From: a virus
Virus genome (UHGV): UHGV-0210057
DNA length: 39,294 nucleotides
Direction: 5' to 3' (one strand)
Below the pieces are notes generated by a model. The model was not told the origin of the DNA. It worked only from the letters and a program-made list of their open reading frames with translations, and made no database searches. This document shows, piece after piece, positions 13 through 38,030 of this stretch (the first letter of the stretch is position 1; each line of letters opens with the position of its first letter). The position numbers and the translations under genes are program-made.

Positions 13-25
13 CGCTCTTTAACAA
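13..25 (+). promoter_or_regulatory. BoxA-like antitermination element in the nutR position (downstream of cro across the window wrap)
   Basis: CGCTCTTTAACAA matches rrn BoxA (TGCTCTTTAACAA) at 12/13 and the lambda nut BoxA core CGCTCTT; no BoxB-like GC hairpin follows before the ATG at 70. Confidence 0.4.
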
Positions 26-69
26 TAAGCAATCAACTTAACAGTCAATTCAAACTAAAGGAGTCAATT

Positions 70-609
70 ATGCAACCACTTACATACCAACAGACTAGCG
101 GATTTAGCCCGACTGCGGTGATAAATCGTTCTCAAATAAAACAGGTGCCAGGCCACGAAAAAATCCGTGATGCCGTTCGCGCCTGGTCGGCTGCAGATAA
201 TCAGGATGTTGTTGCCGCACTCATTGTGAATGAGTATCGGGAGCAGGGCGGCGGCACCATCGATTTCCCTGATGATGTCAGCCGTGCACGCCAGAAGCTG
301 TTCCGCTTCCTCGATAACAAATTCGATTCTGAAAAATACCGAAATAACGTGCGTGAACTGACCCCGGCAATTCTGGCGGTACTACCGCTGGAATATCGCG
401 GCCACCTGGTTGAGCAGGATAGCTTCATGGCTCGGCTGGCTGAAATGGAAAAGGAACTCTGTGAGGCAAAGCAGGCGGTCATTCTCAACGCACCACGCCA
501 CCAGAAACTGAAGGAGATGAGTGAAGGCATTGTGTCGATGTTTCGAGTGGACCCGGATCTGGCTGGTCCATTGATGGCGATGGTCACCACCATGCTGGGG
601 GCAATATGA
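70..609 (+). CDS. Hypothetical early protein in the cII position, possibly YdaT-family
   Basis: 179-aa ORF with AAGGAG RBS 7 nt upstream; sits between cro (window end) and O; family assignment is from memory only. Confidence 0.5.
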   Translation: MQPLTYQQTSGFSPTAVINRSQIKQVPGHEKIRDAVRAWSAADNQDVVAALIVNEYREQGGGTIDFPDDVSRARQKLFRFLDNKFDSEKYRNNVRELTPAILAVLPLEYRGHLVEQDSFMARLAEMEKELCEAKQAVILNAPRHQKLKEMSEGIVSMFRVDPDLAGPLMAMVTTMLGAI

Positions 610-695
610 CAGGTTCAAAAATGGCGAAAGTCGGTCTGCGGGAACAGAACCGACTTTCAGGTGCAAATCGTAACACACTCATTGCGGGAGGAATT

Positions 696-1625
696 ATGGC
701 AAACACTGCTGAGATATTCAATTTTCCAGTGCCGGATGCGGCACAAAAGGAGCGGCGCGTGGCAGATCTCGATGATGGTTATACGCGCATTGCAAATGAG
801 TTGCTGGAAGCTGTGATGCTGGCCGGATTAACACAGCACCAGCTTCTGGTCTTCCTGGCTGTCATGCGCAAAACATATGGCTTTAATAAAAAACTGGATT
901 GGGTGAGCAACGAGCAACTTTCCGAGTTGACCGGGATATTGCCGCACAAGTGTTCTGCTGCAAAAAGTGTTCTGGTAAAGCGTGGGATTTTTATTCAGAG
1001 TGGGCGGAATATCGGCATTAATAATGTGGTCAGTGAATGGTCAACATTACCCGAATCAGGTAAGAAAAATAAAGTTTACCTGAAAGAGGTAAATTTACCT
1101 GAATCAGGTAAGAAAAGTTTACCCAAATCAGGTAAAGGCGTTTACCCGAATCAGGTAAACACAAAAGACAAACTAACAAAAGACAATATAAAACCTTTTT
1201 CGTCCGAGAATTCTGGCGAATCCTCTGACCAGCCAGAAAACGACTTTCCTGTGGAGAAACTGGATGCTGCAATTCAGAGCGGCAGCAAGTGGGGGACAGC
1301 AGAAGACCTGACCGCCGCAGAGTGGATGTTTGACATGGTGAAGACTATCGCGCCATCAGCCAGAAAACCGAATTTTGCAGGGTGGGCTAACGATATCCGC
1401 CTGATGCGTGAACGTGACGGACGTAACCACCGCGACATGTGCGTGCTGTTCCGCTGGGCATGCCAGGACAACTTCTGGTCTGGTAACGTGCTGAGCCCGG
1501 CCAAACTTCGCGATAAGTGGACCCAGCTCGAAATCAACCGTAACAAGCAACAGGCTGGCGTGACAGTCAGCAAACCAAAACTCGACCTGACAAACATTGA
1601 CTGGATTTACGGGGTGGATCTATGA
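696..1625 (+). CDS. O: Lambda O-like replication initiator
   Basis: From MANTAEIFNF the protein aligns with lambda O N-terminus (VADLDDGY..RKTYG..SEW); GGGAGG RBS before ATG at 696; iterons embedded in the linker; stop overlaps P start. Confidence 0.9.
   Translation: MANTAEIFNFPVPDAAQKERRVADLDDGYTRIANELLEAVMLAGLTQHQLLVFLAVMRKTYGFNKKLDWVSNEQLSELTGILPHKCSAAKSVLVKRGIFIQSGRNIGINNVVSEWSTLPESGKKNKVYLKEVNLPESGKKSLPKSGKGVYPNQVNTKDKLTKDNIKPFSSENSGESSDQPENDFPVEKLDAAIQSGSKWGTAEDLTAAEWMFDMVKTIAPSARKPNFAGWANDIRLMRERDGRNHRDMCVLFRWACQDNFWSGNVLSPAKLRDKWTQLEINRNKQQAGVTVSKPKLDLTNIDWIYGVDL
1047..1159. repeat. Origin iterons (ori-lambda-like) inside the O gene
   Basis: Five 17-19 bp repeats of TTTACC(C/T)GAATCAGGTAA(A/G), each an internal palindrome (TTACC..GGTAA), at about 1047-1063, 1075-1093, 1094-1112, 1118-1136, 1141-1159, followed by an AT-rich stretch; they encode the repeated LPESGKK motif. 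Confidence 0.8.
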
Positions 1626-2323
1626 AAAACATCGCCGTACAGATGGTTAACTTTGACCGTGAGCAGATGCGCCGGATCGCCAACAACATGCCGGAACATT
1701 ATGACGAAAAGCCGCAGGTACAGCAGGTAGCGCAGATCATCAACGGTGTGTTCAGCCAGTTGCTGGCAACTTTCCCGGCGAGCCTGGCTAACCGTGACCA
1801 GAACGAACTGAACGAAATTCGCCGCCAGTGGGTTCTGGCTTTCCGGGAAAACGGGATCACCACAATGGAACAGGTTAACGCAGGAATGCGCGTAGCCCGT
1901 CGGCAGAATCGACCATTCCTGCCATCACCCGGGCAGTTTGTCGCCTGGTGCCGGGAAGAAGCATCCGTTAACGCCGGGCTGCCAAACGTCAGCGAGTTGG
2001 TTGATATGGTTTACGAGTATTGCCGGAAGCGTGGCCTGTATCCGGATGCAGAGTCTTATCCGTGGAAATCGAACGCGCATTACTGGTTGGTTACCAACTT
2101 GTACCAGAACATGCGGGCCAATGCGCTGACTGACGCGGAATTACGGCGCAAGGCTGCCGATGAACTGACCTGTATGACAGCGCGAATTAACCGTGGTGAG
2201 ACGATACCTGAACCAGTAAAACAACTTCCTGTTATGGGCGGTAGACCTCTAAATCGTGCACAGGCTCTGGCGAAGATCGCAGAAATCAAAGCTAAGTTTG
2301 GGCTGAAAGGAGCAAGGGTATGA
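1622..2323 (+). CDS. P: Lambda P-like replication protein (DnaB helicase loader)
   Basis: 233 aa, near-identical along its length to lambda P as recalled (MKNIA.QMVNFDREQMRRIANNMPE...); ATGA overlap with O stop. Confidence 0.95.
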   Translation: MKNIAVQMVNFDREQMRRIANNMPEHYDEKPQVQQVAQIINGVFSQLLATFPASLANRDQNELNEIRRQWVLAFRENGITTMEQVNAGMRVARRQNRPFLPSPGQFVAWCREEASVNAGLPNVSELVDMVYEYCRKRGLYPDAESYPWKSNAHYWLVTNLYQNMRANALTDAELRRKAADELTCMTARINRGETIPEPVKQLPVMGGRPLNRAQALAKIAEIKAKFGLKGARV

Positions 2324-2622
2324 CGGGCAAAGAGGCAATTATTCATTACCTGGGGACTCATAAGAACTTCTGTGCGCAGGACGTTGCCGTGGTAACAGGC
2401 GCAACCGTAACCAGCATAAATCAGGCTGCGGCTAAAATGGCACGGGCAGGTCTTCTGGTTATCGAAGGTAAGGTCTGGCGAACGGTGTATTACCGGTTTG
2501 CTACTAGGGAAGAACGGGAAGGAAAGATGAGCACGAACCTGATTTTTAAGGAGTGTCGCCAGAGTGCCGCGATGAAACGGGTATTGAGGGTATATAAAAG
2601 AACATCAATGGGTACACAATGA
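2320..2622 (+). CDS. ren: Ren-like protein
   Basis: 100 aa beginning MTGKEAIIHYLGTH, matching lambda Ren as recalled; directly follows P with overlap. Confidence 0.85.
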   Translation: MTGKEAIIHYLGTHKNFCAQDVAVVTGATVTSINQAAAKMARAGLLVIEGKVWRTVYYRFATREEREGKMSTNLIFKECRQSAAMKRVLRVYKRTSMGTQ

Positions 2623-2689
2623 TGAAACAGATGAGTTGAGTTCAAACTGTAGTACAATTCTCTCCAGTTTGAACAGGAAAGAATATGCT

Positions 2690-3022
2690 ATGAATCCTTA
2701 TATTTATCTTGGTGGTGCAATACTTGCAGAGGTCATTGGTACAACCTTAATGAAGTTTTCAGAAGGTTTTACACGGTTATGGCCATCTGTTGGTACAATT
2801 ATTTGTTATTGTGCATCATTCTGGTTATTAGCTCAGACGCTGGCTTATATTCCTACAGGGATTGCTTATGCTATCTGGTCAGGAGTCGGTATTGTCCTGA
2901 TTAGCTTACTATCATGGGGATTTTTCGGCCAACGGCTGGACCTGCCAGCTATTATAGGCATGATGTTGATTTGTGCCGGTGTGTTGGTTATTAATTTATT
3001 TTCACGAAGCACACCACATTAA
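2690..3022 (+). CDS. emrE: SMR-family multidrug efflux transporter EmrE
   Basis: 110 aa from MNPYIYLGGAILAEVIGTTLMKFSEGF, four predicted TM helices; same position as emrE in the DLP12 prophage; AT-rich relative to neighbours. Confidence 0.85.
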   Translation: MNPYIYLGGAILAEVIGTTLMKFSEGFTRLWPSVGTIICYCASFWLLAQTLAYIPTGIAYAIWSGVGIVLISLLSWGFFGQRLDLPAIIGMMLICAGVLVINLFSRSTPH

Positions 3023-3055
3023 AAATAATTTCTTTTGAATCGAGTGAAATAGGTT

Positions 3056-3082
3056 AGCCCGCATAAGTGCGGGCTGCTTTTT
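3056..3082. terminator. Rho-independent terminator after emrE (bidirectional, shared with the convergent esterase gene)
   Basis: AGCCCGCA-TAAG-TGCGGGCT hairpin followed by GCTTTTT; the T-run overlaps the esterase stop codon. Confidence 0.6.
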
Positions 3083-4124
3083 ACAGGTCAGCGTTTGTTT
3101 TTTGTTGTTGGGTAGCGGTTTTTATGGGGGTTCCCAGTTTTTTAGTAAACCACTCAACAACTCTGTTTATAATAATTGGCTGATACCATGTATTATCGCC
3201 ATGCTCAGCCCCTTCTACCAGAACGTACTCAGCGTTATCGCCGTTCTTCTTCAACATCCTGAATAGTTTGGCGCTTTGCTCAGGTGAAACCAGAGTGTCT
3301 TTGCTACCATGCATAATAAGAAATGGGGGTTTTACTCCTTTCATATGTCCGATTGGACTGGCGTTTAGCGCTTTTTCTTTTGACGCTGTTATGGGGGCTC
3401 CCGCAAAACTTCTGAATGCAGGGCCATTGATCATTAAGGCTTCGGTTACGGCAGGAGATCGATGAACCTCCTGCACAGATTCAGGGAACCCCTCGCCAAT
3501 ATTCAACAAGTCAGAAATCCCATAAAGTGTGGCAACTGCCTGAACATCTGCTGATTGCTGAAGAAAGTCACCTTTATCAAAGGTTTTGTCACCATTTGTA
3601 GTTCCCATCATCTGGGCAAGCCATCCACCGGCAGAGTCACCCAGAACTCCGATTCTTTGAGGATCAATCCCATAATCGCTGGCATGTTCTCTCAAGTAAC
3701 GTATTGCAGCTTTCCCATCCTCAACTGGTGCTGGAAATGTATCAGGAATTGTTCTGTATTCTACAGCGGCCACAACAAAACCAGCTTCAGCCAGAGCCAT
3801 TCTCATTTCAATAAATTTGTCATGTTCAGAAGACATGAATCCGCCGCCGGGATAATAAATAATGGCTGGTTTTAAATCATTTGTTCGTGGGACAAGAACT
3901 GACATGTGAAGCTGTCTGACAGAACGAGTTCCTTTTATCTGGGAATAAACAACATCACCAATGAGATCGACCTGGTTTCTGGTCGGTGAAACACTAATGA
4001 TATCTGCACCCGGGGTGTAACCAGGAAGATTAGTCTGGACAGGTGTTGCACAACTCCCGACCGACATGGCCATTGACATACCATACAATAGTGTTGCAGA
4101 TGATAATATCTTGTTAATTTTCAT
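3081..4124 (-). CDS. Secreted or lipoprotein alpha/beta-hydrolase (esterase/lipase-like)
   Basis: 347 aa; N-terminal signal peptide with possible lipobox (MSMAMSVGSC); GDSAGG nucleophile motif and HGSKD; opposite strand to flanking phage genes with its own terminator (moron organisation). Confidence 0.75.
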   Translation of the reverse strand: MKINKILSSATLLYGMSMAMSVGSCATPVQTNLPGYTPGADIISVSPTRNQVDLIGDVVYSQIKGTRSVRQLHMSVLVPRTNDLKPAIIYYPGGGFMSSEHDKFIEMRMALAEAGFVVAAVEYRTIPDTFPAPVEDGKAAIRYLREHASDYGIDPQRIGVLGDSAGGWLAQMMGTTNGDKTFDKGDFLQQSADVQAVATLYGISDLLNIGEGFPESVQEVHRSPAVTEALMINGPAFRSFAGAPITASKEKALNASPIGHMKGVKPPFLIMHGSKDTLVSPEQSAKLFRMLKKNGDNAEYVLVEGAEHGDNTWYQPIIINRVVEWFTKKLGTPIKTATQQQKTNADL

Positions 4125-4571
4125 GTTTTACATGCCTTGACTTATCGGATGAAATTCTCTTACTGAATTTAACGGCAGTTTAATAGCCGTACAACTCGTG
4201 GTAGCTAGGGAAATATCCCAGTCGTGGTTAAGGTTGTACTTGACGGCTATTATTTCAACAATGCTTAAAGTGAGAGCTTAAGGTTATGCGTATGTTTTAC
4301 AGTCCGAGTAGATTCTGACCAATAGCTTCTTTGTATGATTCTGTCAGAAATAAATCTTGGCTTGCATGAAGTTTGAGACCTTATCTTGTTTGATTATGAA
4401 TAATCAATTCGCCATAATTGTATCACCGGAGCCTGAACAACTTCGGTGACTTCTGCGCTAAACGGGGACGTTTATGCGCACACACAATCCAAACTCTCTT
4501 CTCCCTTCACAGATGCAGAAATGCACCTGCGTTTTTTTGCATCCAGCGTCTGACCTCTGTGGAGGTGAAGC

Positions 4572-5027
4572 GTGAACCTACCACAAGATGGCATCAAACT
4601 GCATCGCGGTAACTTCACCGCTATCGGTCAGCAGATCCAGCCTTATCTGGAGGACGGCAAATGCTTTCGCATGGTGCTTAAACCGTGGCGCGAGAGACGC
4701 AGTCTTTCCCAGAATGCACTTAGCCACATGTGGTACAGCGAAATCAGTGAATACCTCATAAGCAGGGGGAAATCGTTCGCTACTGCAGCATGGGTAAAAG
4801 ATGCTCTCAAACACACATACCTCGGTTATGAAACCAAAGACCTGGTTGATGTCGTAACCGGTGAAATCACCACTATTCAGTCGTTACGCCATACCTCCGA
4901 TCTTGATACCGGAGAGATGTATGTCTTCCTGTGTAAGGTTGAAGCCTGGGCGATGAATATTGGCTGCCACCTGACTATTCCGCCGAGCTGCGAGTTCCAG
5001 CTGCTGCGCGACAAGCAGGAGGCGTAA
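4572..5027 (+). CDS. ybcN: NinB-family recombination protein (YbcN-like)
   Basis: 151 aa, GTG start with GGAGG RBS; [15 protein letters not shown]... and RSLSQN motif match DLP12 YbcN / lambda NinB as recalled. Confidence 0.8.
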
Positions 5028-5197
5028 TGGCTACACCGATTATTCGTGTCATGAACGGGCACATTTACAGAGTACCAAATCGTCGTAAGCGTAAACCTGA
5101 GCTGAAGCCTTCCGAAATACCAACACTGCTCGGATATACCGCCAGCCTGGTTGATAAAAAATGGTTGCGACTGGCAGCAAGGAGGAATCATGGCTGA
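5027..5197 (+). CDS. ninE: NinE-like protein
   Basis: 56-aa ORF (below the ORF-track cutoff) [32 protein letters not shown]..., translated by hand; TAATG overlap with ybcN stop. Confidence 0.7.
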   Translation: MATPIIRVMNGHIYRVPNRRKRKPELKPSEIPTLLGYTASLVDKKWLRLAARRNHG

Positions 5198-5480
5198 TTT
5201 GAGAAAAGCAGCGCGTGGTCGGGAATGCCAGGTAAGAATCCCTGGCGTATGTAATGGCAACCCTGAAACGTCTGTACTGGCACATATCCGGCTGGCTGGA
5301 TTGTGCGGCACCGGTATTAAACCGCCAGACCTTATTGCCACCATTGCCTGTTCTGCCTGTCACGACGAAATCGACCGCCGCACGCATTTTGTCGATGCTG
5401 AGTACGCAAAAGAATGCGCGCTGGAAGGTATGGCGAGAACGCAGGTTATCTGGCTGAAAGAGGGGGTAATCAAGGCGTGA
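5190..5480 (+). CDS. ybcO: YbcO-like (DUF1364) putative nuclease
   Basis: 96 aa from [23 protein letters not shown]... with Cys-rich motif; ATGGCTGA overlap with ninE stop. Confidence 0.75.
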
Positions 5481-5839
5481 ATACTTACCACATCACACTA
5501 CCCTGGCCGCCGAGCAATAACCGCTACTACAGGCATAATCGCGGGCGCACGCACATCAGCGCAGAAGGGCAGGCATACCGTGATAACGTCGCCCGAATCA
5601 TTAAAGGCTCAATGCTGGATATCGGTCTGGCTATGCCTGTGAAAATCCGCATTGAGTGCCACATGCCGGATCGCCGTCGCCGTGACCTGGATAATCTGCA
5701 AAAAGCCGCTTTTGACGCACTCACTAAAGCAGGTTTCTGGCTGGATGATGAGCTGGTCGTTGATTACCGCGTTGTGAAGATGCCTGTTACCAAAGGTGGG
5801 AAGCTGGAACTGACCACTACTGAACTGGGAGATGAATGA
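5477..5839 (+). CDS. rusA: RusA Holliday-junction resolvase
   Basis: 120 aa from a GTG start ([26 protein letters not shown]...), near-identical to E. coli RusA as recalled; GTGA overlap with ybcO stop. Confidence 0.85.
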
Positions 5840-5934
5840 TGTTTGAGTCTTATATGGCAGAACGTCTTCGCCGCCGCTGGGTGCGCCTGCGCTTATATCG
5901 TTTTATTGATTTTTGCTGGCAATTGGCGTGCTAG
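5836..5934 (+). CDS. Small YlcG-like ORF
   Basis: 32-aa [35 protein letters not shown] overlapping the rusA stop, in the DLP12 ylcG position; too short to be certain. Confidence 0.4.
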
Positions 5935-5957
5935 CCTGATTTTTGTGGGGAAAGTTG

Positions 5958-6341
5958 ATGCGTGATATTCAGATGGTTCTTGAGCGTTGGGGGGCATGGG
6001 CGGCTAATAACCACGAGGATGTAACCTGGTCATCCATTGCTGCCGGTTTTAAGGGATTAATTCCTTCAAAAGTAAAGTCTCGCCCACAATGCTGTGATGA
6101 TGACGCGATGATTGTTTGTGGATGTATGGCTCGCCTGAAAAAGAACAATAGCTATTTGCATGATTTACTAGTGGATTATTATGTCGGGGGTATGACATTT
6201 ATGTCACTGGCAAGTAAGCATTGTTGCTCTGATGGTTATATCGGGAAAAAGTTACAGAAGGCTGAGGGAATAATTGAAGGGATGTTAATGGCATTAGATA
6301 TACGGTTAGAGATGGATATCGTTGTTACTAAGTCTAATTAA
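5958..6341 (+). CDS. quuD: Late-gene antiterminator Q (phage 82/21 QuuD-like)
   Basis: 127 aa from [22 protein letters not shown]... with Cys-rich zinc-binding region; located after the nin genes and before the lysis genes. Confidence 0.8.
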
Positions 6342-6366
6342 TACGCTAATTATTTACTAAGTGTTA

Positions 6367-6393
6367 TTAAAAAAGGGGCGTAGAAACGCCCCC
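6367..6393 (-). terminator. Intrinsic terminator for the convergent porin transcript
   Basis: GGGGCG-TAGAAA-CGCCCC hairpin; on the minus strand it is followed by a TTTTTT run. Confidence 0.5.
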
Positions 6394-6482
6394 AAAAATA
6401 AAGGGTAATATATAACAGAAGGTTTATATAGTCAGAAGCAAGGTAGTGCTTCTAAAGGAAGTGGCTTGAGGGAGCCACTTAT

Positions 6483-6520
6483 ATGTTGGGGAGGCAAAGC
6501 CTCCCGCAACATATCTTTTT
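6483..6520 (+). terminator. Intrinsic terminator downstream of Q (tR'-like position)
   Basis: ATGTTGGGGAGGC-AAA-GCCTCCC(G)CAACAT extended hairpin followed by ATCTTTTT, about 140-180 nt after the Q stop, the spacing expected for a PR'-to-tR' leader. Confidence 0.5.
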
Positions 6521-6530
6521 CGTAACCAGA

Positions 6531-7628
6531 TTAGAACTGGTAAACCAGTCCTACGGCAACGATGTCGTCAGTGCTTACACCAAGTGCTTTAGTGAAGTCG
6601 TTTTTGTCAAGCAGGTTGATCTTGTAATCAACGAAAGTAGACATGTTTTTGTTGAAGTAATAAGTTGCACCTACATCAACATATTTGACTAAGTCCTGAT
6701 CGCCCCATACTCCAAGATCCTTACCTTTAGATTGCAGGTAAGCAACGGACGGACGCAGACCGAAATCGAACTGATATTGTGCAACAGCTTCGAAGTTTTG
6801 AGCTTTATTAGCAACGAAGTGATCAGCAAATACAGTCATATTCTGGGTTTCAGAATAGGTAGTGGCCAGGTAAATGTTGTTAGCGTCATATTTCAGACCT
6901 GCGGCCCAAATTTCTGCATTTTTACCGGAAGCAAATACTTCAGGAAGAACTTTGCCTGCATTGACTTGAGTGTCGGTACGATCAGATTTCGCATAAGTCG
7001 CACCAATGCCGAATCCTTCGTATTCATAGGTAGCAGAGAAACCGAATCCATCACCGTTACCTTCGGTGTAGTTATCGAAATCGCTACGATCGTTTTTACC
7101 TTGGTACTGAGCAGCAAAGTTCAGACCATCAACCAGACCAAAGAAGTCGTTGTTACGGTAAGTTGCAACACCAGTTGCACGTTGAGTCATGAACACGTCG
7201 GTTTGAGTCCAAGTATCACCACCGAATTCTGGCAGGACGTCAGTCCACGCACCGATGTCGTATGCTACACCGTAGTTACGACCGTAATCGATGGAACCGT
7301 AGTCACCGAATTTCAGGCCTGCAAATGCAAGACGGGTTTTGTCTTTGGCGGAACCTTGAGATTCAGCGCGGTTGCCTTTGAATTCATATTCCCACTGACC
7401 GAAACCAGTCAGTTGATCGTTGATTTGGGTTTCACCTTTGAAGCCCAGACGAACATAAGTAGTATCACCATCATCTGCATCGTTAGAGGAAAAGTAGTGC
7501 TTGGCATTAACTTTCCCGTACAGATCCAGCTTGTTACTGTCTTTATTATAAATTTCAGCTGCCTGAGCAGACATCGCCATCAGTACTGATGCAGCTACAG
7601 CAGAAATTGCCACTGTTAATTTTTTCAT
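6531..7628 (-). CDS. nmpC: OmpC-family general porin (NmpC/Lc-like), apparently intact
   Basis: 365 aa from [23 protein letters not shown] signal peptide; AEIYNKD..LDLYGK start, porin motifs and C-terminal ...VGLVYQF; same position and orientation as nmpC in DLP12. Confidence 0.9.
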
Positions 7629-7706
7629 CGTGAGCCCTTTTTTTGAACTATTATTAAAAAATGATGTCACTGCGCGATAAATATTCATCTAATCAATATG
7701 ATTATT

Positions 7707-8753
7707 TCAAGATGTTGTATGGGTCCACCACATATTGCAATTTTTATTCTCTTTTAAAATATATTCCACGGGCGTCATTAGTGCGAGCGCCTTGTGGGGT
7801 CTTTTGCTGTTATACAGCACCAGATATTCCGCCAGCTTCTGGTTAAATAGCGCCAGATCTTCAAAGAGTAAAATCTCATTAAATTCAATAAACTGCTCTC
7901 TTAACGTCCGGTTAAAACGTTCACAGATAGCGTTCATTTTTGGCGTGTAGGGATAGGTCCAGAGGTGTTTGATAGCGGCTTCCTGCAGCGTTTTGTCGAA
8001 GTTTCCCAGGAACTCTTTTCCGTTATCTGTGATTATCTGGCTGATACCGACCGGGAACAACCGGGCTGCGCGGCTGAAGAAGTGATTGACGATATCACTG
8101 TTGAGTGACGGCACAGCCAGCGCCAGCGCGTAATTGCTGCATTCGTCGATCATGGTGATGACATAGCGACGCAGTTCGCCCATTCTGAGCTCAATGGCGT
8201 CCATCCCAATGAGCTCACCTGTCTTTACCGGGCGGTAGTGCTTTGGCCTGCGGGGTTTGGCAGACCGCTTTTTGACAAGCAGTGCCTTCCCCCGCGATCC
8301 CAGACGCACAGGTATCATCCGCATTTTATCATGTGCGGCAGCGATCATTCTGCCGATGGTGGAAACACTCGGACAGGCCAGATAGCGCTGTTCGCACCAG
8401 GGCTTCAGGCGAACAAAAATCTGCTCTTTACCGAGGTTCGGCAGCTCTGTCCTGAGGCGTCGAATCTCTTTCAGCACATCGGGATGCCAGTGTTTTTTTC
8501 GTCGCACCAGAGGTGCCTTACTGTGCGGGATTAGCCCCTCAGGTCCTTCCTTGTTCAGTAACTGACGCCACCAGTAAAGCGTGCGGCAGGACACGCCAAA
8601 GGCTTCAGAAGCTGCAGAAATACCGTGTTTATCCCAGAAGTGCAGAGCCTTCATTCTCATTGTTGCTATATCAGCCATCACTGAAAGCCTCAACGCATAA
8701 TCGGCCGTTTGGTAGTACTTAGGATAGCCAACCATCAGATGCTGCATTTGCAT
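7707..8753 (-). CDS. IS transposase (single ORF with N-terminal HTH and rve/DDE integrase core; IS481-family-like)
   Basis: 348 aa; rve-type catalytic region (ITDNGKEF...YTPKMNAICERFNRTLREQ...YNSKRPHKAL); AAGGGGAG RBS before the start. Confidence 0.8.
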   Translation of the reverse strand: MQMQHLMVGYPKYYQTADYALRLSVMADIATMRMKALHFWDKHGISAASEAFGVSCRTLYWWRQLLNKEGPEGLIPHSKAPLVRRKKHWHPDVLKEIRRLRTELPNLGKEQIFVRLKPWCEQRYLACPSVSTIGRMIAAAHDKMRMIPVRLGSRGKALLVKKRSAKPRRPKHYRPVKTGELIGMDAIELRMGELRRYVITMIDECSNYALALAVPSLNSDIVNHFFSRAARLFPVGISQIITDNGKEFLGNFDKTLQEAAIKHLWTYPYTPKMNAICERFNRTLREQFIEFNEILLFEDLALFNQKLAEYLVLYNSKRPHKALALMTPVEYILKENKNCNMWWTHTTS

Positions 8754-8815
8754 AGTGCAATCTCCCCTTACTTATCCGGAGGCAATTGCAATATCTCTGT
8801 GAACTTACACAGATG
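7711..8815 (-). mobile_element. Insertion sequence (IS481-family-like), boundaries approximate
   Basis: Imperfect terminal inverted repeats with identical 11-bp core ATATTGCAATT at 7732-7742 and its reverse complement at 8784-8794; element about 1.1 kb with one transposase ORF; exact ends and target-site duplication not resolved. Confidence 0.55.
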
Positions 8816-9316
8816 TAAGTTTTAGTTTCTCATTTAATTTGTGAAGTAGATCTCTATTTTTATCTGAACTTTTTCTATCGAAACCTATTTATGGCTCTTA
8901 TTTGAACAAAAATAAACCTATTAGCTAATTTATATTAATGGCTGTTATTTATGGTGGTTCTATAATTCGGAAGTTTAATTTAAATCAACTAAAAATAACG
9001 TCGGAAATTATTTATTGGTTATTTGTTGAGGTTTTCTTATGTATTTGTGGTGGTGTTTTGAACACTCGGTAGCATTCTCATAAATATCATTCAGTGGTTT
9101 ACGTACGTAAAAAATTGGTTATGCTGTTAAGAGTGGTTACTTCGTCACACAGCTTAAACCCGCCGTCGAGCTGGTTTTTCCATTTTTTGAGTCTCGATAT
9201 TAGCTGATAACTCAATACCTGAGTTATTCATTGACTCCGAGTCTGTTACGTTTCTGCTTTTTTGCGATACGTTGTATTCCCTCAATTTACACCCGCTTTG
9301 TCTGCGAGGTGGGGTT

Positions 9317-10463: not shown

Positions 10464-10494
10464 TTTTTTTGCAAATCACAAAGTCCATTTAATG

Positions 10495-10517: not shown

Positions 10518-10524
10518 GCAATAA

Positions 10525-12740: not shown

Positions 12741-13268
12741 ATGGCACTCACCGACAAGCAAGAGATGTTCTGTCGCGAGTACCTCATCGATTTAAATGCC
12801 ACGCAAGCGGCTATTCGGGCGGGGTACAGCGCAAAGACAGCTAACCGTACCGCATCCGAAAACCTGTCAAAACCTGACATCAAGTTAAGAATCTCCGAAC
12901 TGAAAGCGCAACGCAATGATCTTGTTGGTATTAATGCAGAATATGTACTTAACCGCCTTATTGAAATCGACCAGATGGATGTGCTCGACATTCTCCTGCA
13001 AAACGGTGAGTTAAAGCCCATTAAAGACTGGCCTAAGGTATGGCGCACAACGCTATCAGGAATGGATGTCGTGGAGATGGTATCCGCAGATAGTGCCGCA
13101 CTTCTGAAGAAAATCAAATGGCCTGATAAGGTCAAAAACCTCGAACTTCTTGGTAAGCATGTTTCCGTTCAGGCATTTAAAGAACAAGCTTCTCACGAGC
13201 TAACCGGTAAAGACGGCGGCGCAATCCAGATTGAAACATCACCGATGAGCACTCTATTCGGAAAATGA
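12741..13268 (+). CDS. Terminase small subunit
   Basis: 175 aa; N-terminus MALTDKQEMFCREYLIDLNATQAAIRAGYS is the conserved terminase small-subunit HTH motif; ATGA overlap with TerL. Confidence 0.85.
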   Translation: MALTDKQEMFCREYLIDLNATQAAIRAGYSAKTANRTASENLSKPDIKLRISELKAQRNDLVGINAEYVLNRLIEIDQMDVLDILLQNGELKPIKDWPKVWRTTLSGMDVVEMVSADSAALLKKIKWPDKVKNLELLGKHVSVQAFKEQASHELTGKDGGAIQIETSPMSTLFGK

Positions 13269-30893: not shown

Positions 30894-31207
30894 TACCCCT
30901 GTGTTTTTTGTACAATCAAAGATTTTGTGGGCACTAAGAAAATTAGTGTATATAAACCATGCTTAAATTGCATAAATATTGAATATAGCATCGATGGCTC
31001 ACTATCCTTACGTTATCAAAAAAATGTGTATACCGTGATTATGCTTGATAATTATTTGACCGCAGTGTTGTATAGTCTACTGCTTTCTAATCTACAAGCA
31101 TCATGGCATAAATCCAGTATCTAGAACTAATAAGATTAACAATTGGATCACAAGTGATTGGCTTAGTTCACTGAGCCATGCATTGTTACCCTCTGATTAA
31201 AGATTAA

Positions 31208-32401: not shown

Positions 32402-32526
32402 TTTTTACCCGTCATGGAGTGCGGCTGTCAACGATCTGACGCGAACCATTACGAACTGTTAATCTACGGAAGACTTGATATTCAGGGGATTTTACGGACT
32501 GGTACGGATGGGAGCGAACTGATAAA

Positions 32527-32541
32527 TGGTGTCCCCTGCAG
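32527..32541 (-). other. Candidate attP core resembling a tRNA 3' end (argW-like)
   Basis: Minus strand reads CTGCAGGGGACACCA (acceptor-stem 3' strand, discriminator and CCA), matching my recollection of the argW tRNA-Arg(CCU) 3' end; lies in the 213-bp gap between alpA and int. Confidence 0.5.
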
Positions 32542-32614
32542 ACATCTACTTGAAGCAGCAGGGGATTGATTGGAATGGTGTTTTTTAGATGTGAAAAATA
32601 TTTTACCCGCTATT

Positions 32615-32815
32615 TTACCCATTGGCGCGGCTTAAGAGCTTATTTTTGAACTCACAATGGTCACGATATAACCATCTTGCTCGCCCGTGGATAACTTTGG
32701 CTTTAGGCAGGTCGCCGGACTTAATCCGGTCATAGATGAAGGTTTTACCAAAGCCAGTATCAGCCATGATGAATTTCAAATCAACCAGGGAATCAGGCTG
32801 TAGTTCGTGTTGCAT
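32615..32815 (-). CDS. alpA: AlpA-family excisionase / transcriptional regulator
   Basis: 66 aa with HTH motif LKFIMADTGFGKTFIYDRIKSGDLPKAKVIHGRARW typical of AlpA/Xis; immediately upstream of int on the same strand. Confidence 0.8.
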   Translation of the reverse strand: MQHELQPDSLVDLKFIMADTGFGKTFIYDRIKSGDLPKAKVIHGRARWLYRDHCEFKNKLLSRANG

Positions 32816-32833
32816 GAGTGCTATCTCCGAATA

Positions 32834-32849
32834 GGGAATCGAACCTGCA
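32834..32849 (-). other. tRNA T-arm-like fragment (degenerate att-related repeat?)
   Basis: Minus strand reads TTGCAGGTTCGATTCC (T-loop consensus GGTTCGATTCC); the 3' half of the T-stem is not complementary, so it is not a functional tRNA. Confidence 0.35.
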
Positions 32850-32857
32850 AATCAGGC

Positions 32858-32880
32858 AATAAAAAACCGCATTGATGCGG
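32858..32880 (-). terminator. Intrinsic terminator separating the early-left operon from alpA-int
   Basis: CCGCA-TTGA-TGCGG hairpin, followed on the minus strand by TTTTTT. Confidence 0.5.
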
Positions 32881-32937
32881 CGATGGTAGGTCTGGATATC
32901 TTGAGAAATGAACTGGCCTCATCGAGTGTGAGGCGGG

Positions 32938-33282
32938 TTAGTCCTTGCGTAGCTCGCTGATTCTTCTGTAAGTCTCTGGTGCTTTGTTCCCGTACGTCTT
33001 CATTTCAGACTTCAACAGAGCAACGAGGGAATCCCATTCGTTGAGGATGCCTTTGAATGCCGGAACGCGCTTTGCAACCTTGTCGAATGAATCCCTGATT
33101 TCTGGAATCTGCTCGACAAGCGCAACGCATCGCCGGAAGTCTGCTGCGTCATGGGGAGCGCCGAAGTGATGACCATAGATATTCTTTTTCAGTCCACATG
33201 CGATTGAGGCAAGAGTTGCGCTACTGATGCCAACATCGCCAGTCGATTGCCATTTCAAAACCTTCATAGCCAAATCTGACAT
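32938..33282 (-). CDS. Hypothetical protein
   Basis: 114-aa ORF with GGAG RBS; preceded by a terminator hairpin (GCCGCC..GGCGG plus T7); no family recognised. Confidence 0.5.
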   Translation of the reverse strand: MSDLAMKVLKWQSTGDVGISSATLASIACGLKKNIYGHHFGAPHDAADFRRCVALVEQIPEIRDSFDKVAKRVPAFKGILNEWDSLVALLKSEMKTYGNKAPETYRRISELRKD

Positions 33283-33383
33283 TTCTTGTCTCCAATAAAA
33301 AAACCGCCATCAGGCGGCTTGGTGTTCTTTCAGTTCTTCAATTCGAATATTGGTTACATTGTTTTCATATATGAATAAATAAA

Positions 33384-33596
33384 TTAGCTTTTTTCGTTGC
33401 CTTCGCTTTCTTTATTAATTTTAACAAACTCGTTTTTACCACGCTCTCCAAATGCGTCTTTAGAGTCGTTGTATCCGCAATCGCAGCACACATAATCATC
33501 AGACCATCCACGCATTGTTTTTTCTTTTGCAATATTTCCAGAACCGCATTTTGGACAAGACATATCACTACCTCCAAAGCATGAGAAAGATGACAA
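33384..33596 (-). CDS. Small zinc-ribbon protein
   Basis: Two CxxC pairs (CPKCG ... CCDCG); start may be Met1 or Met12. Confidence 0.5.
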   Translation of the reverse strand: MSSFSCFGGSDMSCPKCGSGNIAKEKTMRGWSDDYVCCDCGYNDSKDAFGERGKNEFVKINKESEGNEKS

Positions 33597-33659
33597 CGTA
33601 ACATTGATTGGAGATTAACAATAGATTGCTGATGTAAAAGATATGTATAAGCTTAGCTA

Positions 33660-34307
33660 TCAAAGGGGAGGTTCTGGTAGTTGCATCCAGTCGGTTACAT
33701 TGCGACTCTGTGTTTCGAAAAATTCATCACCATTGCGGACAATATCGAAAAACTCTCCGTCTCGATATTGCGCATAAAGAACGAATGCGCCATCACATAA
33801 AATAATTACGTGCTGACCATCATCTGGCATTAGCTCACTACAGCTTATCCAACCATCCGGAGTTACCGGATAGTTGCCGGGTTCTTTAATGTGCAAACGA
33901 GGCTCACCATCTTTTGGTTCAGGCCACTGGCGCTCCATGTTGATCTTCAATTTATTTTCCATAGCAGCGGTAATTTCAGCATCACTGATACCAGCACGGC
34001 GCTGTGCATCCCACAACAGGAACTGCATATCAGCCCACTCGCTGAGATCGTCAGGTTCGGCTGCGGCTTCCAGAGCCTCTTTTGAGAGGTGTTTCAGTGG
34101 ACCAATGGGGCCAACGCAGCCAAATGTGGAGTCAGACCATTTGGCATGCTCGTGGCGAACCCGCTCGCGTTCCAGTGAGGCGAGAGCGATTTTAAATGCT
34201 GTAAGCATGTGTGCTTGATCGTTGTCGAGTCCGAATGGCATTTCATCTCGTGCTGACTCAATACTGGTAATCGTATTTTGTAGCCATTCCATGGTAAAAG
34301 TGCTCAT
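33660..34307 (-). CDS. DUF550/DUF551-type prophage protein
   Basis: 215 aa; C-terminal DUF551-like motif (DGWISCSELMPDDGQHVIIL.DGAFVLYAQY) as recalled from lambdoid prophage proteins. Confidence 0.6.
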   Translation of the reverse strand: MSTFTMEWLQNTITSIESARDEMPFGLDNDQAHMLTAFKIALASLERERVRHEHAKWSDSTFGCVGPIGPLKHLSKEALEAAAEPDDLSEWADMQFLLWDAQRRAGISDAEITAAMENKLKINMERQWPEPKDGEPRLHIKEPGNYPVTPDGWISCSELMPDDGQHVIILCDGAFVLYAQYRDGEFFDIVRNGDEFFETQSRNVTDWMQLPEPPL

Positions 34308-34675
34308 CGTAAAATATCCTCTATACTGGTAAGCCCTTCATTATTTAGCCAGATCATTGCGTCATCCGGCAACTTGCTGTCTGGTTTTGCGTTTTTGAGA
34401 GAGGAACTCAGTCGCTTAATCCACATTGTCAGCTCAGTAATGCGCCTGTGTTTGCCTTCCAGCTCAACGCGCAGCTTCCCTACCGTTAGTGCAATATCCT
34501 CGTTCTCCTGGTCGCGGCGTTTGACGTATTGCTGGTTTCTTTCCCGTTCATCCAGCAGTGCCAGCACAATCGATGGTGTTACCAGCTCATGGAAAAGGTC
34601 CGCGTCAAATCCCCAGTTGTCATGCATTGCCTGCTCTGCCGCTTCACGCAGTGCCTGAGAGTTAATTTCGCTCAC
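34304..34675 (-). CDS. Ea22/Ead-like early protein
   Basis: 123 aa; N-terminus MSEINSQALREAAEQAMHDNWGFDADLFHELVTPSIV resembles the ead/Ea22-like family as recalled. Confidence 0.6.
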   Translation of the reverse strand: MSEINSQALREAAEQAMHDNWGFDADLFHELVTPSIVLALLDERERNQQYVKRRDQENEDIALTVGKLRVELEGKHRRITELTMWIKRLSSSLKNAKPDSKLPDDAMIWLNNEGLTSIEDILR

Positions 34676-34893
34676 TTCGAACCTCTCTGTTTACTGATAA
34701 GCTCCAGATCCTCCTGGCAACTTGCACAAGTCTGACAACCCTGAACGATCAGGCGTCTTCGTTCATCTATCGGATCGCCACACTCACAACAATGAGTGGC
34801 AGATACAGCCTGGTGGTTCAGACGACGCATTTTTATTGCTGTATTGCGCTGTAATTCTTCAATTTCTGATGCTGAATCAATGAGGTCTGCCAT
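34672..34893 (-). CDS. TraR/DksA-family C4 zinc-finger protein
   Basis: 73 aa with CCECGDPIDERRRLIVQGCQTCASC (C4 zinc finger of TraR/DksA type). Confidence 0.7.
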   Translation of the reverse strand: MADLIDSASEIEELQRNTAIKMRRLNHQAVSATHCCECGDPIDERRRLIVQGCQTCASCQEDLELISKQRGSK

Positions 34894-34991
34894 CTTCCAT
34901 TAATCCCTGAATTGTTGGTTAATACGCTTGAGGGTGAATGCGAATAATAAAAAAGGAGCCTGTAGCTCCCTGATGATTTTGCTTTTCATGT

Positions 34992-35273
34992 TCACCGTTC
35001 CTTAAAGACGCCGTTTAACATACCGATTGCCAGACTTAAGTGAGTCGGTGTGAATCCCATCAGCGTTACCGTTTCGCGGTGCTTCTTCAGTACGCTACGG
35101 CAAATGTCATCGACGTTTTTATCCGGAAACTGCTGTCTGGCATTTTTGATTTCAGAATTAGCCTGACGGGCAATGCTGCGAAGGGCGTTTTCTTGCTGAG
35201 GTGTCATTGAACAAGTTCCATGTCGGCAAGCATAAGCACACAGAATATGAAGCCCGCTGCCAGAAAAATGCAT
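34992..35273 (-). CDS. Hypothetical early protein
   Basis: ORF in the lambda orf61 region; the true start may be Met23 (35207). Confidence 0.4.
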   Translation of the reverse strand: MHFSGSGLHILCAYACRHGTCSMTPQQENALRSIARQANSEIKNARQQFPDKNVDDICRSVLKKHRETVTLMGFTPTHLSLAIGMLNGVFKER

Positions 35274-35283
35274 TCAGTGGTTG

Positions 35284-35475
35284 TCATACCTGGTCTCTCT
35301 CATCTGCTTCTGCTTTCGCCACCATCATTTCCAGCTTTTGTGAAAGGGATGTGGCTAACGTATGAAATTCTTCGTCTGTTTCTACTGGTATTGGCACAAA
35401 CCTGACTCCAATTTGAGCAAGGCTATGTGCCATCTCAATACTCGTTCTTAACTTAACAGGAGATGCTTTGTGCAT
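35284..35475 (-). CDS. Lambda orf63-like small protein
   Basis: 63 aa [23 protein letters not shown]...; size and position next to exo match lambda orf63 as recalled. Confidence 0.5.
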   Translation of the reverse strand: MHKASPVKLRTSIEMAHSLAQIGVRFVPIPVETDEEFHTLATSLSQKLEMMVAKAEADERDQV

Positions 35476-35636
35476 ATCGCCTCCCGTTTATTATTTATCT
35501 CCTCAGCCAGCCGCTGTGCTTTCAGTGGATTTCTGATAACAGAAAGGCCGGGAAATAACCAGCCTCGCTTTGTAATGGAGTAGACGAAAGTGATCGCGCC
35601 TACCCGGATATTATCGTGGGGATGCTTCATCGCCAT
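35448..35636 (-). CDS. Lambda orf60a-like small protein
   Basis: 62-aa ORF immediately downstream of exo on the same strand. Confidence 0.45.
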
Positions 35637-36307
35637 TGCTCCCCAAATACAAAACCAATTTCAGCCAGTGCCTCGTCCATTTTTTCGATGAACTCCGGCA
35701 CCATCTCGTCAAAACTCGCAATGTACTTTTCATCCCGCTCAACCACGACATAATGCAGTCCTTCACGCTTCATACGCGGGTCATAGTTGGCAAAGTACCA
35801 GGCATCTTTTCGTGTCACCCACATGCTGTACTGCACCTGGGCCATGTAAGCCGATTTTATGGCCTCGAAACCACCGAGCCGGAACTTCATGAAATCCCGG
35901 GAGGTAAACGGGCATTTCAGTTCAAGGCCGTTGCCGTCACTGCATAAACCATCGGGAGAGCAGGCGGTGCGCATACTTTCGTCGCGATAGATGATCGGGG
36001 ATTCAGTAACATTCACGCCGGAAGTAAACTCAAACAGGGCTCTGGCGTCATTCTCGTACTGTTTTCCCCAGGCCAGCGCCTTAGCGTTAACTTCCGGAGC
36101 CACACCGGTGCAAATCTCAGCCAGCAGGGTGTGAAAGTAGGACATTTTCATGTCAGGCCACTTTTTTCCGGAGCGGGGTTTTGCTATCACATTGTGAACT
36201 TCTGAAGCCGTAATGACGCCGAGTCGTAATTTGTTCCACGCATCATCTCCCTGTTCGACAGCTCTCACGTCGATCCCGGTACGCTGCAGGATAATGTCCG
36301 GTGTCAT
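35627..36307 (-). CDS. exo: Lambda exonuclease (Red-alpha)
   Basis: 226 aa, near-identical to lambda Exo as recalled ([63 protein letters not shown]). Confidence 0.95.
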
Positions 36308-37089
36308 GCAGCCACCTTCTGCTCAGAGGCTTTCTGTTTCAGGAATCCAAGAGCTTTCACTGCTTCGGCCTGTGTCAGTTCTGACGATGCGCGAATGTCG
36401 CGGCGAAATATCTGGGAACAGAGCGGCAATAAGTCGTCATCCCATGTTTTATCCAGGGCAATCAGCAGAGTGTTAATCTCCTGCATGGTTTCATCGTTAA
36501 CCGGAGTGATGTCGCGTTCCGGCTGACGTTCTGCAGTGTATGCGGTATTTTCGACAATGCGCTCGGCTTCATCCTTGTCATAGATACCAGCAAATCCGAA
36601 GGCCAGACGGGCACACTGAATCATGGCTTTATGACGTAACATCCGTTTGGGATGCGACTGCCACGGTCCCGTGATTTCTCTGCCTTCGCGGGTTTTGAAT
36701 GGTTCGCGGCGACATTCATCCATCCACTCGGTAACGCAGATCGGATGATTGCGGTCCTTGCGGTAAATCCGGCATGTACAGGATTCATTGTCCTGCTCAA
36801 AGTCCATGCCATCAAACTGCTGGTTTTCATTGATGATGCGGGACCAGCCATCAACGCCCACCACCGGAACGATGCCGTTCTGCTTATCAGGAAAGGCGTA
36901 AATTTCTTTCGTCCACGGATTAAGGCCGTACTGGTTGGCGACGATCAGCAATGCGATGAACTGCGCATCGCTGGCATCGCCTTTAAATGCCGTCTGGCGA
37001 AGAGTGGTGATCAGTTCCTGTGGGTCGACAGAATCCATGCCGACACGTTCAGCCAGCTTCCCTGCCAGCGTTGCGAGTGCTGTACTCAT
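36304..37089 (-). CDS. bet: Lambda Bet (Red-beta) single-strand annealing protein
   Basis: 261 aa, near-identical to lambda Bet as recalled ([59 protein letters not shown]). Confidence 0.95.
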
Positions 37090-37094
37090 TCGTT

Positions 37095-37391
37095 TTATAC
37101 CTCTGAATCAATATCAACCTGGTGGTGAGCAATGGTTTCAACCATGTACCGGATGTGTTCTGCCATGCGCTCCTGAAACTCAACATCGTCATCAAACGCA
37201 CGGGTAATGGCTTTTTTGCTGGCCCCGTGGCGTTGCAAATGATCGATGCATAGCGATTCAAACAGATGCTGGGGCAGGCCTTTTTCCATGTCGTCTGCCA
37301 GTTCTGCCTCTTTCTCTTCACGGGCGATCTGCTGGTAGTGACGCGCCCAGCTCTGAGCCTCAAGACGATCCTGAATGTAATAAGCGTTCAT
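37095..37391 (-). CDS. gam: Gam RecBCD inhibitor
   Basis: 98 aa, near-identical to the short form of lambda Gam as recalled ([59 protein letters not shown]). Confidence 0.95.
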
Positions 37392-37467
37392 GGCTGAACT
37401 CCTGAAAATGGCTGTGAAAATAGCGCCCGCGAAATGCCAGGCTGATTAGGAAAACAGGAAAGGGGGG

Positions 37468-37674
37468 TTAGTGATTCAGGCCTTTACCGCGTCCGTCGAG
37501 AAAAACTTCCACGAGCAAATCACGGGTATAAGTGCGCTCGATGCCGCGATGCAGATAAAGCCGTCCGCGTAAATTAGCTGATGCAGTCCAGGTACCATCT
37601 TTGTGTTTGACCAGCATTCCTGGCATGACCGCGCCGCGATTAACGGTCTGCGTTCCGTAATGTTGATGAACCAT
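37468..37674 (-). CDS. kil: Kil-like protein (Rac KilR-like FtsZ inhibitor)
   Basis: 68 aa from MVHQHYGTQ...; strong CAGGAG RBS 5-6 nt before this ATG; pattern (H.YGT......V.PG..V.H..G...ASAN..GR.LY.......T.D.LVEVFL.GRG) resembles KilR as recalled; the in-frame upstream extension to 37758 has only a weak RBS. Confidence 0.6.
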   Translation of the reverse strand: MVHQHYGTQTVNRGAVMPGMLVKHKDGTWTASANLRGRLYLHRGIERTYTRDLLVEVFLDGRGKGLNH

Positions 37675-37945
37675 AAAAACTCCTGCCCGTAAGCTGGGCT
37701 GCTGAACATATAGAGACTTCTGCGCGTATTCAGGCGGTGGATGGCCGCCGGTTGCCATAACTAAGCCGCCTCGTTGAAGCGACTAAGGTATGAAATGTTG
37801 AGTTGATTTCAGCTGGTCACACCGACGTTCACGCGTCCGTTTCACCCCTCGCACTCCCCGAAGCCTGCTGAAATTCAAACTGCGGATCTAAGCGGTCATC
37901 GCAACGGTGAATCAGGTGGTTGCCGTATCGTTGTGTTGTTGCGAT
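37675..37945 (-). promoter_or_regulatory. Long (about 270 nt) untranslated, potentially structured PL leader; no N gene
   Basis: No RBS-associated ORF between PL and kil; 9-bp perfect inverted repeat CATCGCAAC/GTTGCGATG (plus coordinates 37897-37905 and 37938-37946) and an 8-bp inverted repeat (37806-37813 / 37867-37874) enclosing GC-rich sub-stems. Confidence 0.4.
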
Positions 37946-37951
37946 GAACTT

Positions 37952-38030
37952 ATTTAAAACTATAGTTGTTTTATCGTCAACAACAAAAGTTGTTTTATTG
38001 GTTGTTTTAGATATAACTGGTTGTATTTAG
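37952..38030 (-). promoter_or_regulatory. PL promoter with OL operators
   Basis: On the minus strand TTGACG-17 bp-TTAAAT, parallel to PR (TTGACT-17 bp-TAATCT); repeated GTTGTT/AACAAC operator half-sites. Confidence 0.5.

Follow-up and report, generated by a model that had tools for sequence, protein, structure and literature searches.

A structured RNA family in the PL leader of N-less lambdoid prophages as a candidate put-like anti-termination element

The lambdoid phage genome UHGV-0210057 (39.3 kb, circularly permuted; its entire stretch of 39,294 nucleotides is referred to as the window) carries a structured RNA element in the leader of the leftward operon, between the promoter PL and the kil gene, at positions 37803-37902 of the minus strand. 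The core of this leader represents a new, widespread and previously unannotated family of structured RNA: of 5426 complete Escherichia coli genomes, 2210 (~40%) contain the 157-nt leader, 95-100% identical and in no case annotated. Because the element fills the slot that phage HK639 uses for its putL RNA, excludes put, and occurs in phages without the antiterminator protein N and upstream of terminators, we propose that it may be a cis-acting anti-termination RNA, put-like in action but not a member of the put family, a reading that we consider close to an even call, if slightly short of it. The window phage itself is an N-less lambdoid that combines a Rac-type immunity region (YdaS/YdaT) with Red genes of lambda type and a virion resembling that of P22, and its nearest phages, PhiR34_1 and Turner, are ~99% identical across the PL-kil region compared.

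Read directly, PL occupies 37952-37980 on the minus strand, with the -35 hexamer TTGACG (37980-37975), a 17-nt spacer and the -10 hexamer TTAAAT (37957-37952) flanked by AACAAC/GTTGTT operator repeats, precisely as an initial annotation of this DNA, made from the letters alone, had placed it; the PR core upstream of cro is near-identical to it. A generic promoter scan does not detect PL because its -10 hexamer lacks A at position 2. Phages with an unrelated PL and unrelated operators (4A7, Perceval and others) show 97% identity to the window beginning at TCGCAAC (37944), and since homology across immunity types starts there, we place the first transcribed nucleotide at about 37945. The gene kil (37468-37674, minus strand), encoding 68 aa from an ATG at 37674 behind an AGGAG ribosome-binding site (PHROG 294, E 2e-38), then follows ~270 nt downstream, again as first described, and is succeeded by gam, bet and exo. 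Doubtful, on the other hand, is the accompanying statement that no reading frame led by a ribosome-binding site precedes kil, as an in-frame ATG at 37758 opens the usual annotated Kil of 96 aa, the form chosen by most gene callers. The leader had furthermore been described as long and structured; folded as a whole (272 nt), it is no better than shuffled sequence (z 0.16).

The structured part of the leader is confined to ~95 nt, from about +50 to +140, with a conserved core at ~37897-37806. The window copy (37803-37902, some +44 to +142 when counted from the inferred start) scores 126 bits (E 9e-27) with our covariance model of the element (R2). Searches with blastn for deep homologs of the leader returned none beyond relatives of 95-99% identity, and as the E. 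coli copies are too similar for structure work, diverged copies were instead sought with a hidden Markov model (HMM) and pattern scans. The HMM of the leader core recovered a diverged copy in a prophage of Enterobacter intestinihominis (locus L151; E 1.6e-21), and a pattern scan of IMG/VR with the common type excluded yielded 22 further stretches. These define the element types A (the window), A', B and C, the latter three from IMG/VR contigs and an Enterobacter genome, whereas scans for additional types found none. A structure alignment of 28 sequences (A3) was built from this material.

Two hairpins emerge from the alignment. In P1 (37858-37885, minus strand), 37885-37879 pairs with 37864-37858 around a central C.N mismatch (37882/37861), and the stem is capped by a 14-nt loop, UUGAAUUUCAGCAG, that is variable only at two singly polymorphic positions. 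P1 is followed by a G-rich linker, GGAGUGCGAGGGGUGAA (37841-37857), nearly invariant in all types, and by P3 (37821-37840), where 37840-37834 pairs with 37827-37821, with a G.G mismatch, a variable loop of 6-8 nt and an invariant A (37841) and G (37820) as flanks. Two pairs of P1 change on both sides (A-U to C-G and G-C to A-U) and one shifts from U.G to C-G, with 99.4% of the alignment cells paired; in P3, pair 63-82 is A-U, G.U or G-C, pair 67-78 is A-U or G-C, and the apical part is replaced in type C. In total, four pairs over P1 and P3 show compensatory double changes, which come from three to four sequence types. Pairing is kept in 97.7% of all cells, as compared to 17-39% after shifting the partners by one to three columns, and 21 cells are changed on both sides against 5.3±1.8 in shuffled alignments (none of 500 reaches 21). 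RNAalifold independently predicts both P1 and P3. Conserved structure and co-variation in related phages, on which the initial annotation had made an RNA-based mechanism hinge, are hence present in the core. Downstream, the 3' tail GCUGAAAU (37806-37813) is complementary to the P1 loop at 37874-37867, which would permit a pseudoknot, a possibility that the alignment neither supports nor contradicts.

Diversity is reduced to 0.025 over P1 and the linker (37905-37846), about half of what is seen in kil, gam and bet at their third codon positions (0.04-0.05). The R2 model finds a single copy in the window, there with filters switched off, and exactly one in each of the 22 other loci in which it has a match, and wherever the flanks were read the element is located just downstream of a PL-type leader. 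Both inverted repeats that had initially been pointed out in the leader were found, 37896-37905/37938-37947 (10 nt, 100% complementary) and 37806-37816/37864-37874 (11 nt, 91% complementary). The second coincides with the tail and loop pairing above, but the relevance attributed to the first did not hold, as most of it falls beyond the conserved element: some type A variants have another sequence in place of its 5' arm, and the 5' leader of types A', B and C is a different one.

Judged by these comparisons, three pieces make up a mosaic leader: a 5' start motif, the structured element and a pre-kil module. The start motif, CATCGCAACAACACAACGATACGG (37923-37946, minus strand, 24 nt), is a conserved PL transcript start and a variant of CATCGAAAC.AAACA.CGA, common to other lambdoid phages. 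The best local alignments with S9-5 (24 nt, equalled by none of 300 shuffles) and with HK639 fall on it, as do weaker ones with phi80 and CobraSix. The motif is visible by eye in phiEt88 and ENT1, and perhaps represents a small 5'-terminal hairpin or a recombination boundary sequence. More broadly, CCATCGAAACGAAACATCGA.. opens the PL transcripts of numerous lambdoid phages whose repressors and operators are unrelated (loci L004, L008, L009, L010, L012, L014, L151 and L155-L176), and the motif is extended to 50-60 nt in HK639, phi80, ENT1 and types B and C.

The pre-kil module (37727-37795, minus strand) consists of CATACCTTAG, a hairpin at 37784-37764 with GAGG in the 3' arm, the ATG at 37758 and a second hairpin, GGCGG-CCAUCCA-CCGCC, at 37749-37733. 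Elsewhere it is found in phi80, HK225, HK639, ENT1, S9-5, CobraSix and 14 loci of Enterobacter, Citrobacter and Scandinavium, always directly after a strong tL1-type terminator, in phi80 the tL1A terminator just past N; in the window, the module has no preceding terminator. A module-anchored scan with one genome per species gave 15 loci, the E. intestinihominis prophage with its divergent element among them, with a terminator before all but one truncated locus. The same post-tL1 pattern, in the order CATACCTCAG, hairpin, TTAGTTATG and the GGCGG hairpin, recurs in loci L004, L008-L011, L014 and L138-L152, with clear compensatory changes in the GAGG hairpin. The encoded peptide, M(T/A)TGGHPPP..., is short and variable at its C-terminus, and its PPP is a potential EF-P-dependent stall; the diversity of the module, 0.0185, is below that of synonymous sites and without codon periodicity. 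The module has the appearance of a structured device in front of kil or other genes, for translation control or as a leader peptide.

What other phages carry in the place of the element hints at its function. HK639 and the element-bearing loci L174 and L151 are identical over ~60 nt of 5' leader and over a 3' flank that reaches through the HK639_45 homolog's start, and between these HK639 has its annotated putL where the other two have the element; phi80 exhibits most of the same 5' leader and then the annotated boxA/boxB of nutL. A covariance model of put (R1, described below) has zero matches in 38 element-bearing loci (472 kb). In 11 of the 13 type B and C loci scanned, the element is succeeded by 0.7-1.9 kb of variable open reading frames (ORFs) and then by perfect GC-stem/T-run terminators, and in nine of those 11 the conserved pre-kil module comes after the terminators, which is the architecture of HK639. 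In the window, the PL operon contains intrinsic terminator-like sites between exo and xis, at 34971-34953, 33320-33301 and 32881-32866 of the minus strand (stems of 6-8 pairs, T runs of 5-6, all intergenic). The Enterobacter phage ENT1 (locus L008, 1320-1500) fills the same PL slot with a cassette of ~170 nt, which has at its start, like phi80, a BoxA-like sequence (TGCTCATTAAGAA), and which a perfect long-range stem of 12 bp (AGCAGCAAATCA/TGATTTGCTGCT) closes; neither put nor the new element, it is possibly a further variant in this slot.

By analogy with put, which gives read-through of both intrinsic and Rho-dependent terminators in the absence of protein cofactors and is blocked when the zinc-binding domain of rpoC is mutated, we infer that the element binds RNA polymerase and suppresses termination. 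The RNA would then act in cis on the polymerase that is transcribing it, rendering PL transcription resistant to intrinsic terminators further down the operon without a phage N protein, with host Nus factors possibly assisting. That the element should constitute a second, structurally unrelated class of protein-independent, polymerase-binding processive antiterminator RNA, a cassette interchangeable with putL and nutL and present in ~40% of E. coli genomes, is a broader and tentative suggestion that we regard as rather doubtful.

The put RNAs of HK022 (putL and putR) and HK639 (putL) are cis-acting, protein-independent antiterminator RNAs that bind the zinc-binding domain in RNA polymerase's beta' subunit (PMC9378689). 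The parallels with the element include the position just downstream of PL in a phage devoid of N, the HK639 putL slot between identical flanks, the strong terminators downstream, the size (~90 nt, versus ~70 nt for put) and a two-hairpin layout, and a (G/U)AACGG motif at the 5' base of the A...G-flanked hairpin recalls put stem I, as a resemblance only. In contrast, the hairpins are 17 nt apart in the element and 1 nt apart in put, no copy is present on the PR side, where HK022 has putR (the HK639 record annotates putL only), and homology is lacking in both sequence and structure. The R1 model was derived from eight put RNAs (putL and putR of HK022; putL of HK639, phiEt88, UPF_BP1, CobraSix, S9-5 and PdC23), with the consensus stem I CGGCG/CGUCG and stem II core GGCGGG..AGGA.GA.CGGCAAU, and as a positive control recovered the putR of UPF_BP1 and phiEt88, on which it had not been trained, at 55-57 bits. 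In the window, its best match reaches 10.9 bits (E 0.32) at 13111, an irrelevant site in the terminase region, with nothing in the PL or PR leaders; such chance-level matches rule out an HK022-type put RNA as the identity of the leader. Rfam 15 produced no match at gathering threshold in the whole window, and in the leader only chance-level matches at E up to 10, but the put loci of HK022 and HK639 give no Rfam match either, so that put is apparently not in Rfam. The put-like mechanism originally surmised for this leader thus survives in part: an RNA element with conserved structure does sit in the putL slot, though it is no put homolog and the first inverted repeat falls outside it.

Several observations weigh against anti-termination as the role of the element. 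Type A, as in the window, is without the terminator that follows the element in other types, and with this adjacent terminator lost, kil to exo need no anti-termination there. Nor does the element explain expression of Q, since there is no second copy downstream of PR. The putative pseudoknot is paired in 96.9% of cells, but its variation is of G.U type only, with zero double changes, and RNAalifold favours other invariant helices over it. The thermodynamic stability of the element is ordinary (z -0.17 to -1.57), and co-variation from three to four lineages amounts to few independent events. In type A, moreover, an Arg-rich frame within the leader has a diversity of 0.083 at third positions versus 0.021 at the other two (p 0.015, one frame). 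The missing terminator between the element and kil to exo, the ordinary fold stability and the absence of a PR-side copy are all congruent with a 5' untranslated region whose role is unrelated to anti-termination, in mRNA stability or processing, control of kil translation, Rho-dependent attenuation or as a small-RNA sponge, in which case the phage would tolerate downstream terminators or bypass them via internal promoters. The first 40 nt of the leader, C/A-rich and G-poor (about 15 C and 5 G by count), resemble a Rho-loading site, and the toxic kilR of the Rac prophage is held in check by Rho and NusG. We nevertheless find such a role unlikely, as it leaves unexplained why the element and putL are exchanged exactly within identical flanks, why the element and put are mutually exclusive, and why types B and C are placed upstream of very strong terminators in the architecture of HK639.

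Quite improbable, in our view, is that the element is a nut-like site, not autonomous, which recruits an unrecognised phage protein (an N analog without detectable homology) or strictly needs host factors. In its favour, phi80 has a protein-dependent site, nutL, in the equivalent position behind a largely shared 5' leader, N proteins are well known for their divergence, several of the small early ORFs are without known function, and a protein could bind to the G-rich linker, which is invariant and single-stranded. Nonetheless, no Arg-rich or N-like ORF is common to the different contexts, the sole ORF of the Arg-rich kind being specific to type A, and the genes just downstream of the element differ completely among types A, B, C1 and C2. 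Congruent with the initial annotation, scans of ~25 early ORFs against PHROGs and Pfam revealed no homolog of N or gp24, finding instead Kil, YdaS/YdaT-type cro/cII, Q, a DksA-like protein and others, and tblastn returned the leader element itself only. As compared to the N-nut systems of lambda and phi80, in which boxA plus boxB RNA, an N protein bearing an arginine-rich motif and host Nus factors act together, the window places its element where phi80 has nutL, a consensus BoxA at the nutR position, and terminators before Q and before xis/int; it differs in having no N homolog, no BoxB at either site and no BoxA in the PL leader (none with at most one mismatch), and in that its Arg-rich micro-ORF is not conserved.

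This micro-ORF (37783-37845, minus strand; GTG to TAG, 20 codons), which reads MKRTRERRCDQLKSTQHFIP* (MKRTRERR...) from the GTG at 37845 with GGGGAG 8 nt upstream, contradicts the earlier claim that no Arg-rich ORF exists between cI and kil, and represents the sole candidate for a translated leader. It could be a minimal or remnant N-like motif, of 20 aa in the window and fused to Kil as a 125-aa protein in variants with CAG in place of the stop. The nucleotides CGYGAACGTCG are common to the micro-ORF and lambda N, its KRTRERR resembles the TRRRERR motif of lambda N, GGGGAG precedes the start, the start varies between GTG and ATG (ATG in 8 of 79 type A variants), the long form is called Kil in some records, and the third-position diversity quoted above is codon-like. 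However, stop codons interrupt the frame in types B (TGA, codon 5) and C (TAA, codon 2), where the RNA helices persist, and inside type A the stop is itself polymorphic (CAG in 53 of 79 variants, TAG in a third) and 5-nt indels occur. Its Arg codons double as the CG-rich arms of P3. PHROGs and Pfam provide no match, tblastn finds only the same element, and among 5.8 billion protein clusters the micro-ORF is carried only by artefacts of deletion fusion. These empty searches and the breakage in types B and C speak against the micro-ORF as an N gene; being destroyed in related element types it is probably incidental, and we regard a translated leader as very improbable. As the two commonest polymorphisms upstream of the micro-ORF start fall on the U.G/C-G pair (37879) and the mismatch (37861) of P1, part of the codon-like third-position pattern may have an RNA-level reason. 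The otherwise open frame from ATG 37899 through kil is broken by two in-frame TAG codons (37890-37888 and 37785-37783), the second of which is CAG in two thirds of variants, and in some GenBank records a 'Kil' of 128-139 aa is made to begin within the RNA element, at GTG or even at ATC.

On the PR side, the cro gene is followed 12 nt after its stop by an rrn-type BoxA, CGCTCTTTAACAA (13-25, plus strand), located 44 nt before the YdaT-type cII-like gene. It matches the rrn BoxA consensus GCUCUUUAACAA at 12 of 13 positions and is the only match with at most one mismatch in the window (~0.05 expected by chance, an estimate), and no BoxB hairpin is found in the 72 nt between the cro end and the next start (-3.7 kcal/mol, z -0.44); the 12/13 match and the missing BoxB are as initially annotated. 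The BoxA is identical in six phages of the same immunity type, and ~1515 complete E. coli genomes have a match that covers at least 80% of window positions 1-110, the interval in which the BoxA lies. Downstream, a strong intrinsic terminator (3055-3076, plus strand) separates the PR-proximal genes from Q and is succeeded by an esterase gene on the opposite strand, and the ~2.4 kb at 3023-5413 contain no family-supported plus-strand gene before rusA, being partly antisense to the esterase gene. PR transcripts must pass both to reach rusA and Q, and the latter stretch would be an ideal Rho target.

As the weaker part of our proposal, this BoxA would probably load a host Nus complex that shields the PR transcript from Rho over the ~2.4 kb before Q. 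Anti-termination of the rrn type by BoxA and Nus factors (NusB/E, NusA, NusG, SuhB) has also been reported at suhB and at CRISPR arrays (PMC5725501, PMC7665894). The window site shares with these the near-consensus BoxA, independence from BoxB and phage protein, and the position ahead of a long stretch without a supported gene on the transcribed strand; it differs in that its operon is an early one of a phage, in that a translated gene begins 44 nt further on, and in its restriction to one immunity type. Host-factor anti-termination of the PR operon by BoxA alone, through NusB/NusE and an rrn-type complex opposing Rho, is compatible with a put-like element under PL, and the 12/13 match, its uniqueness and nutR position, the lack of BoxB, the stretch to be crossed before rusA and Q, and the abundance of matches to window 1-110 in E. 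coli genomes argue for it. Conversely, 4A7, Perceval and HK639, which have the leader or the cII type in common with the window, show cro-cII gaps of 29-30 nt without BoxA. Thus, by this comparison, the BoxA goes with the immunity module and not with the leader, and could be a relic of an N-using ancestor. It may also modulate translation instead, by pairing of GCUCUUU with AAGGAGU. Furthermore, rrn-type BoxA complexes counter Rho and not strong intrinsic terminators, and as they are inefficient against the latter, the terminator at 3055-3076 is not expected to yield to Nus and BoxA. All considered, anti-termination by BoxA alone is possible, though we lean somewhat against it. The GCUCUUU of the BoxA (14-20) is complementary to the Shine-Dalgarno sequence AAGGAGU (58-64) of the YdaT-type cII-like gene, and Nus-factor binding and translation of this gene could in principle be coupled.

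To our knowledge, the put RNAs of HK022-like phages are the only phage RNAs shown to render RNA polymerase terminator-resistant alone. If the put-like reading of the element is true, a second, unrelated RNA in the same slot would mean that this solution evolved more than once, and structural and synthetic biology would gain a new natural ligand of the elongation complex. Such an RNA would further explain early gene expression (toxic kil, recombination, excision) for a very large group of N-less E. coli prophages, which includes the Bievrevirus phages 4A7 and Perceval, PhiR isolates and P22-like chimeras such as the window. The nutL of phi80, the putL of HK639 and the element of L174 form a natural cassette series, the last two between identical flanks and phi80 with most of the 5' leader.

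A few other identities were considered for the leader and rejected. The anti-sRNAs (directed against small RNAs) AgvB and AsxR, prompted by a near-match of CACAACG at the 5' end to CACAACA, are located at the PR' moron site and 51-60 nt long. Analogously, the Rac small RNA KilS is unlike the leader by eye, and the leader HMM gives only E 5.9 at its locus; KilS, a small RNA that RefSeq places just upstream of Rac kilR (L153, E. coli K-12 Rac, 4406-4503), is a further non-coding element before a kil gene, unrelated to the present one. Descent from the lambda N leader comes down to a local match of 18 of 22 positions, equalled by 3.4% of 500 shuffles. Comparison of the early leaders for a second, PR-side copy or any likeness returned only the 12/13 coincidence AATCAACT(C/T)AACA.

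The remainder of the early regions agrees with a lambdoid layout. Family scans of the immunity region detect an S24/HTH repressor, a YdaS-type cro (39064-39294, plus strand, running off the end of the window and continuing at position 1) and a 179-aa YdaT-type 'cII', that is, a Rac-type region. In the leftward operon, kil-gam-bet-exo are followed by small ORFs and then xis-int, while the rightward operon runs through O, P, ren, accessory genes (morons), rusA and the antiterminator gene Q (5943-6341, plus strand). An oop-type antisense RNA is likely at 622-721, where the inner ATG of O is overlapped by a promoter on the minus strand (721-693; TTGAAT-17-CATAAT, extended TG), which precedes a hairpin at 665-633 (GAAAGUCGGU/ACCGACUUUC) and then GCCAUUUUU; the hairpin has compensatory changes relative to CobraSix. 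In the HK639 record, the cII-O junction at the equivalent place bears the label 'M3-like RNA'. The nin/Q region (2636-8753) is rich in accessory genes, all in the path of early or late transcription: an SMR/QacE-like transporter (2636-3022), the opposite-strand esterase gene (3081-4124) and, after Q, a 385-aa ORF with a signal peptide (6531-7688), porin-like by eye only, and a 348-aa ORF (7707-8753) that, again by eye only, resembles an insertion sequence transposase.

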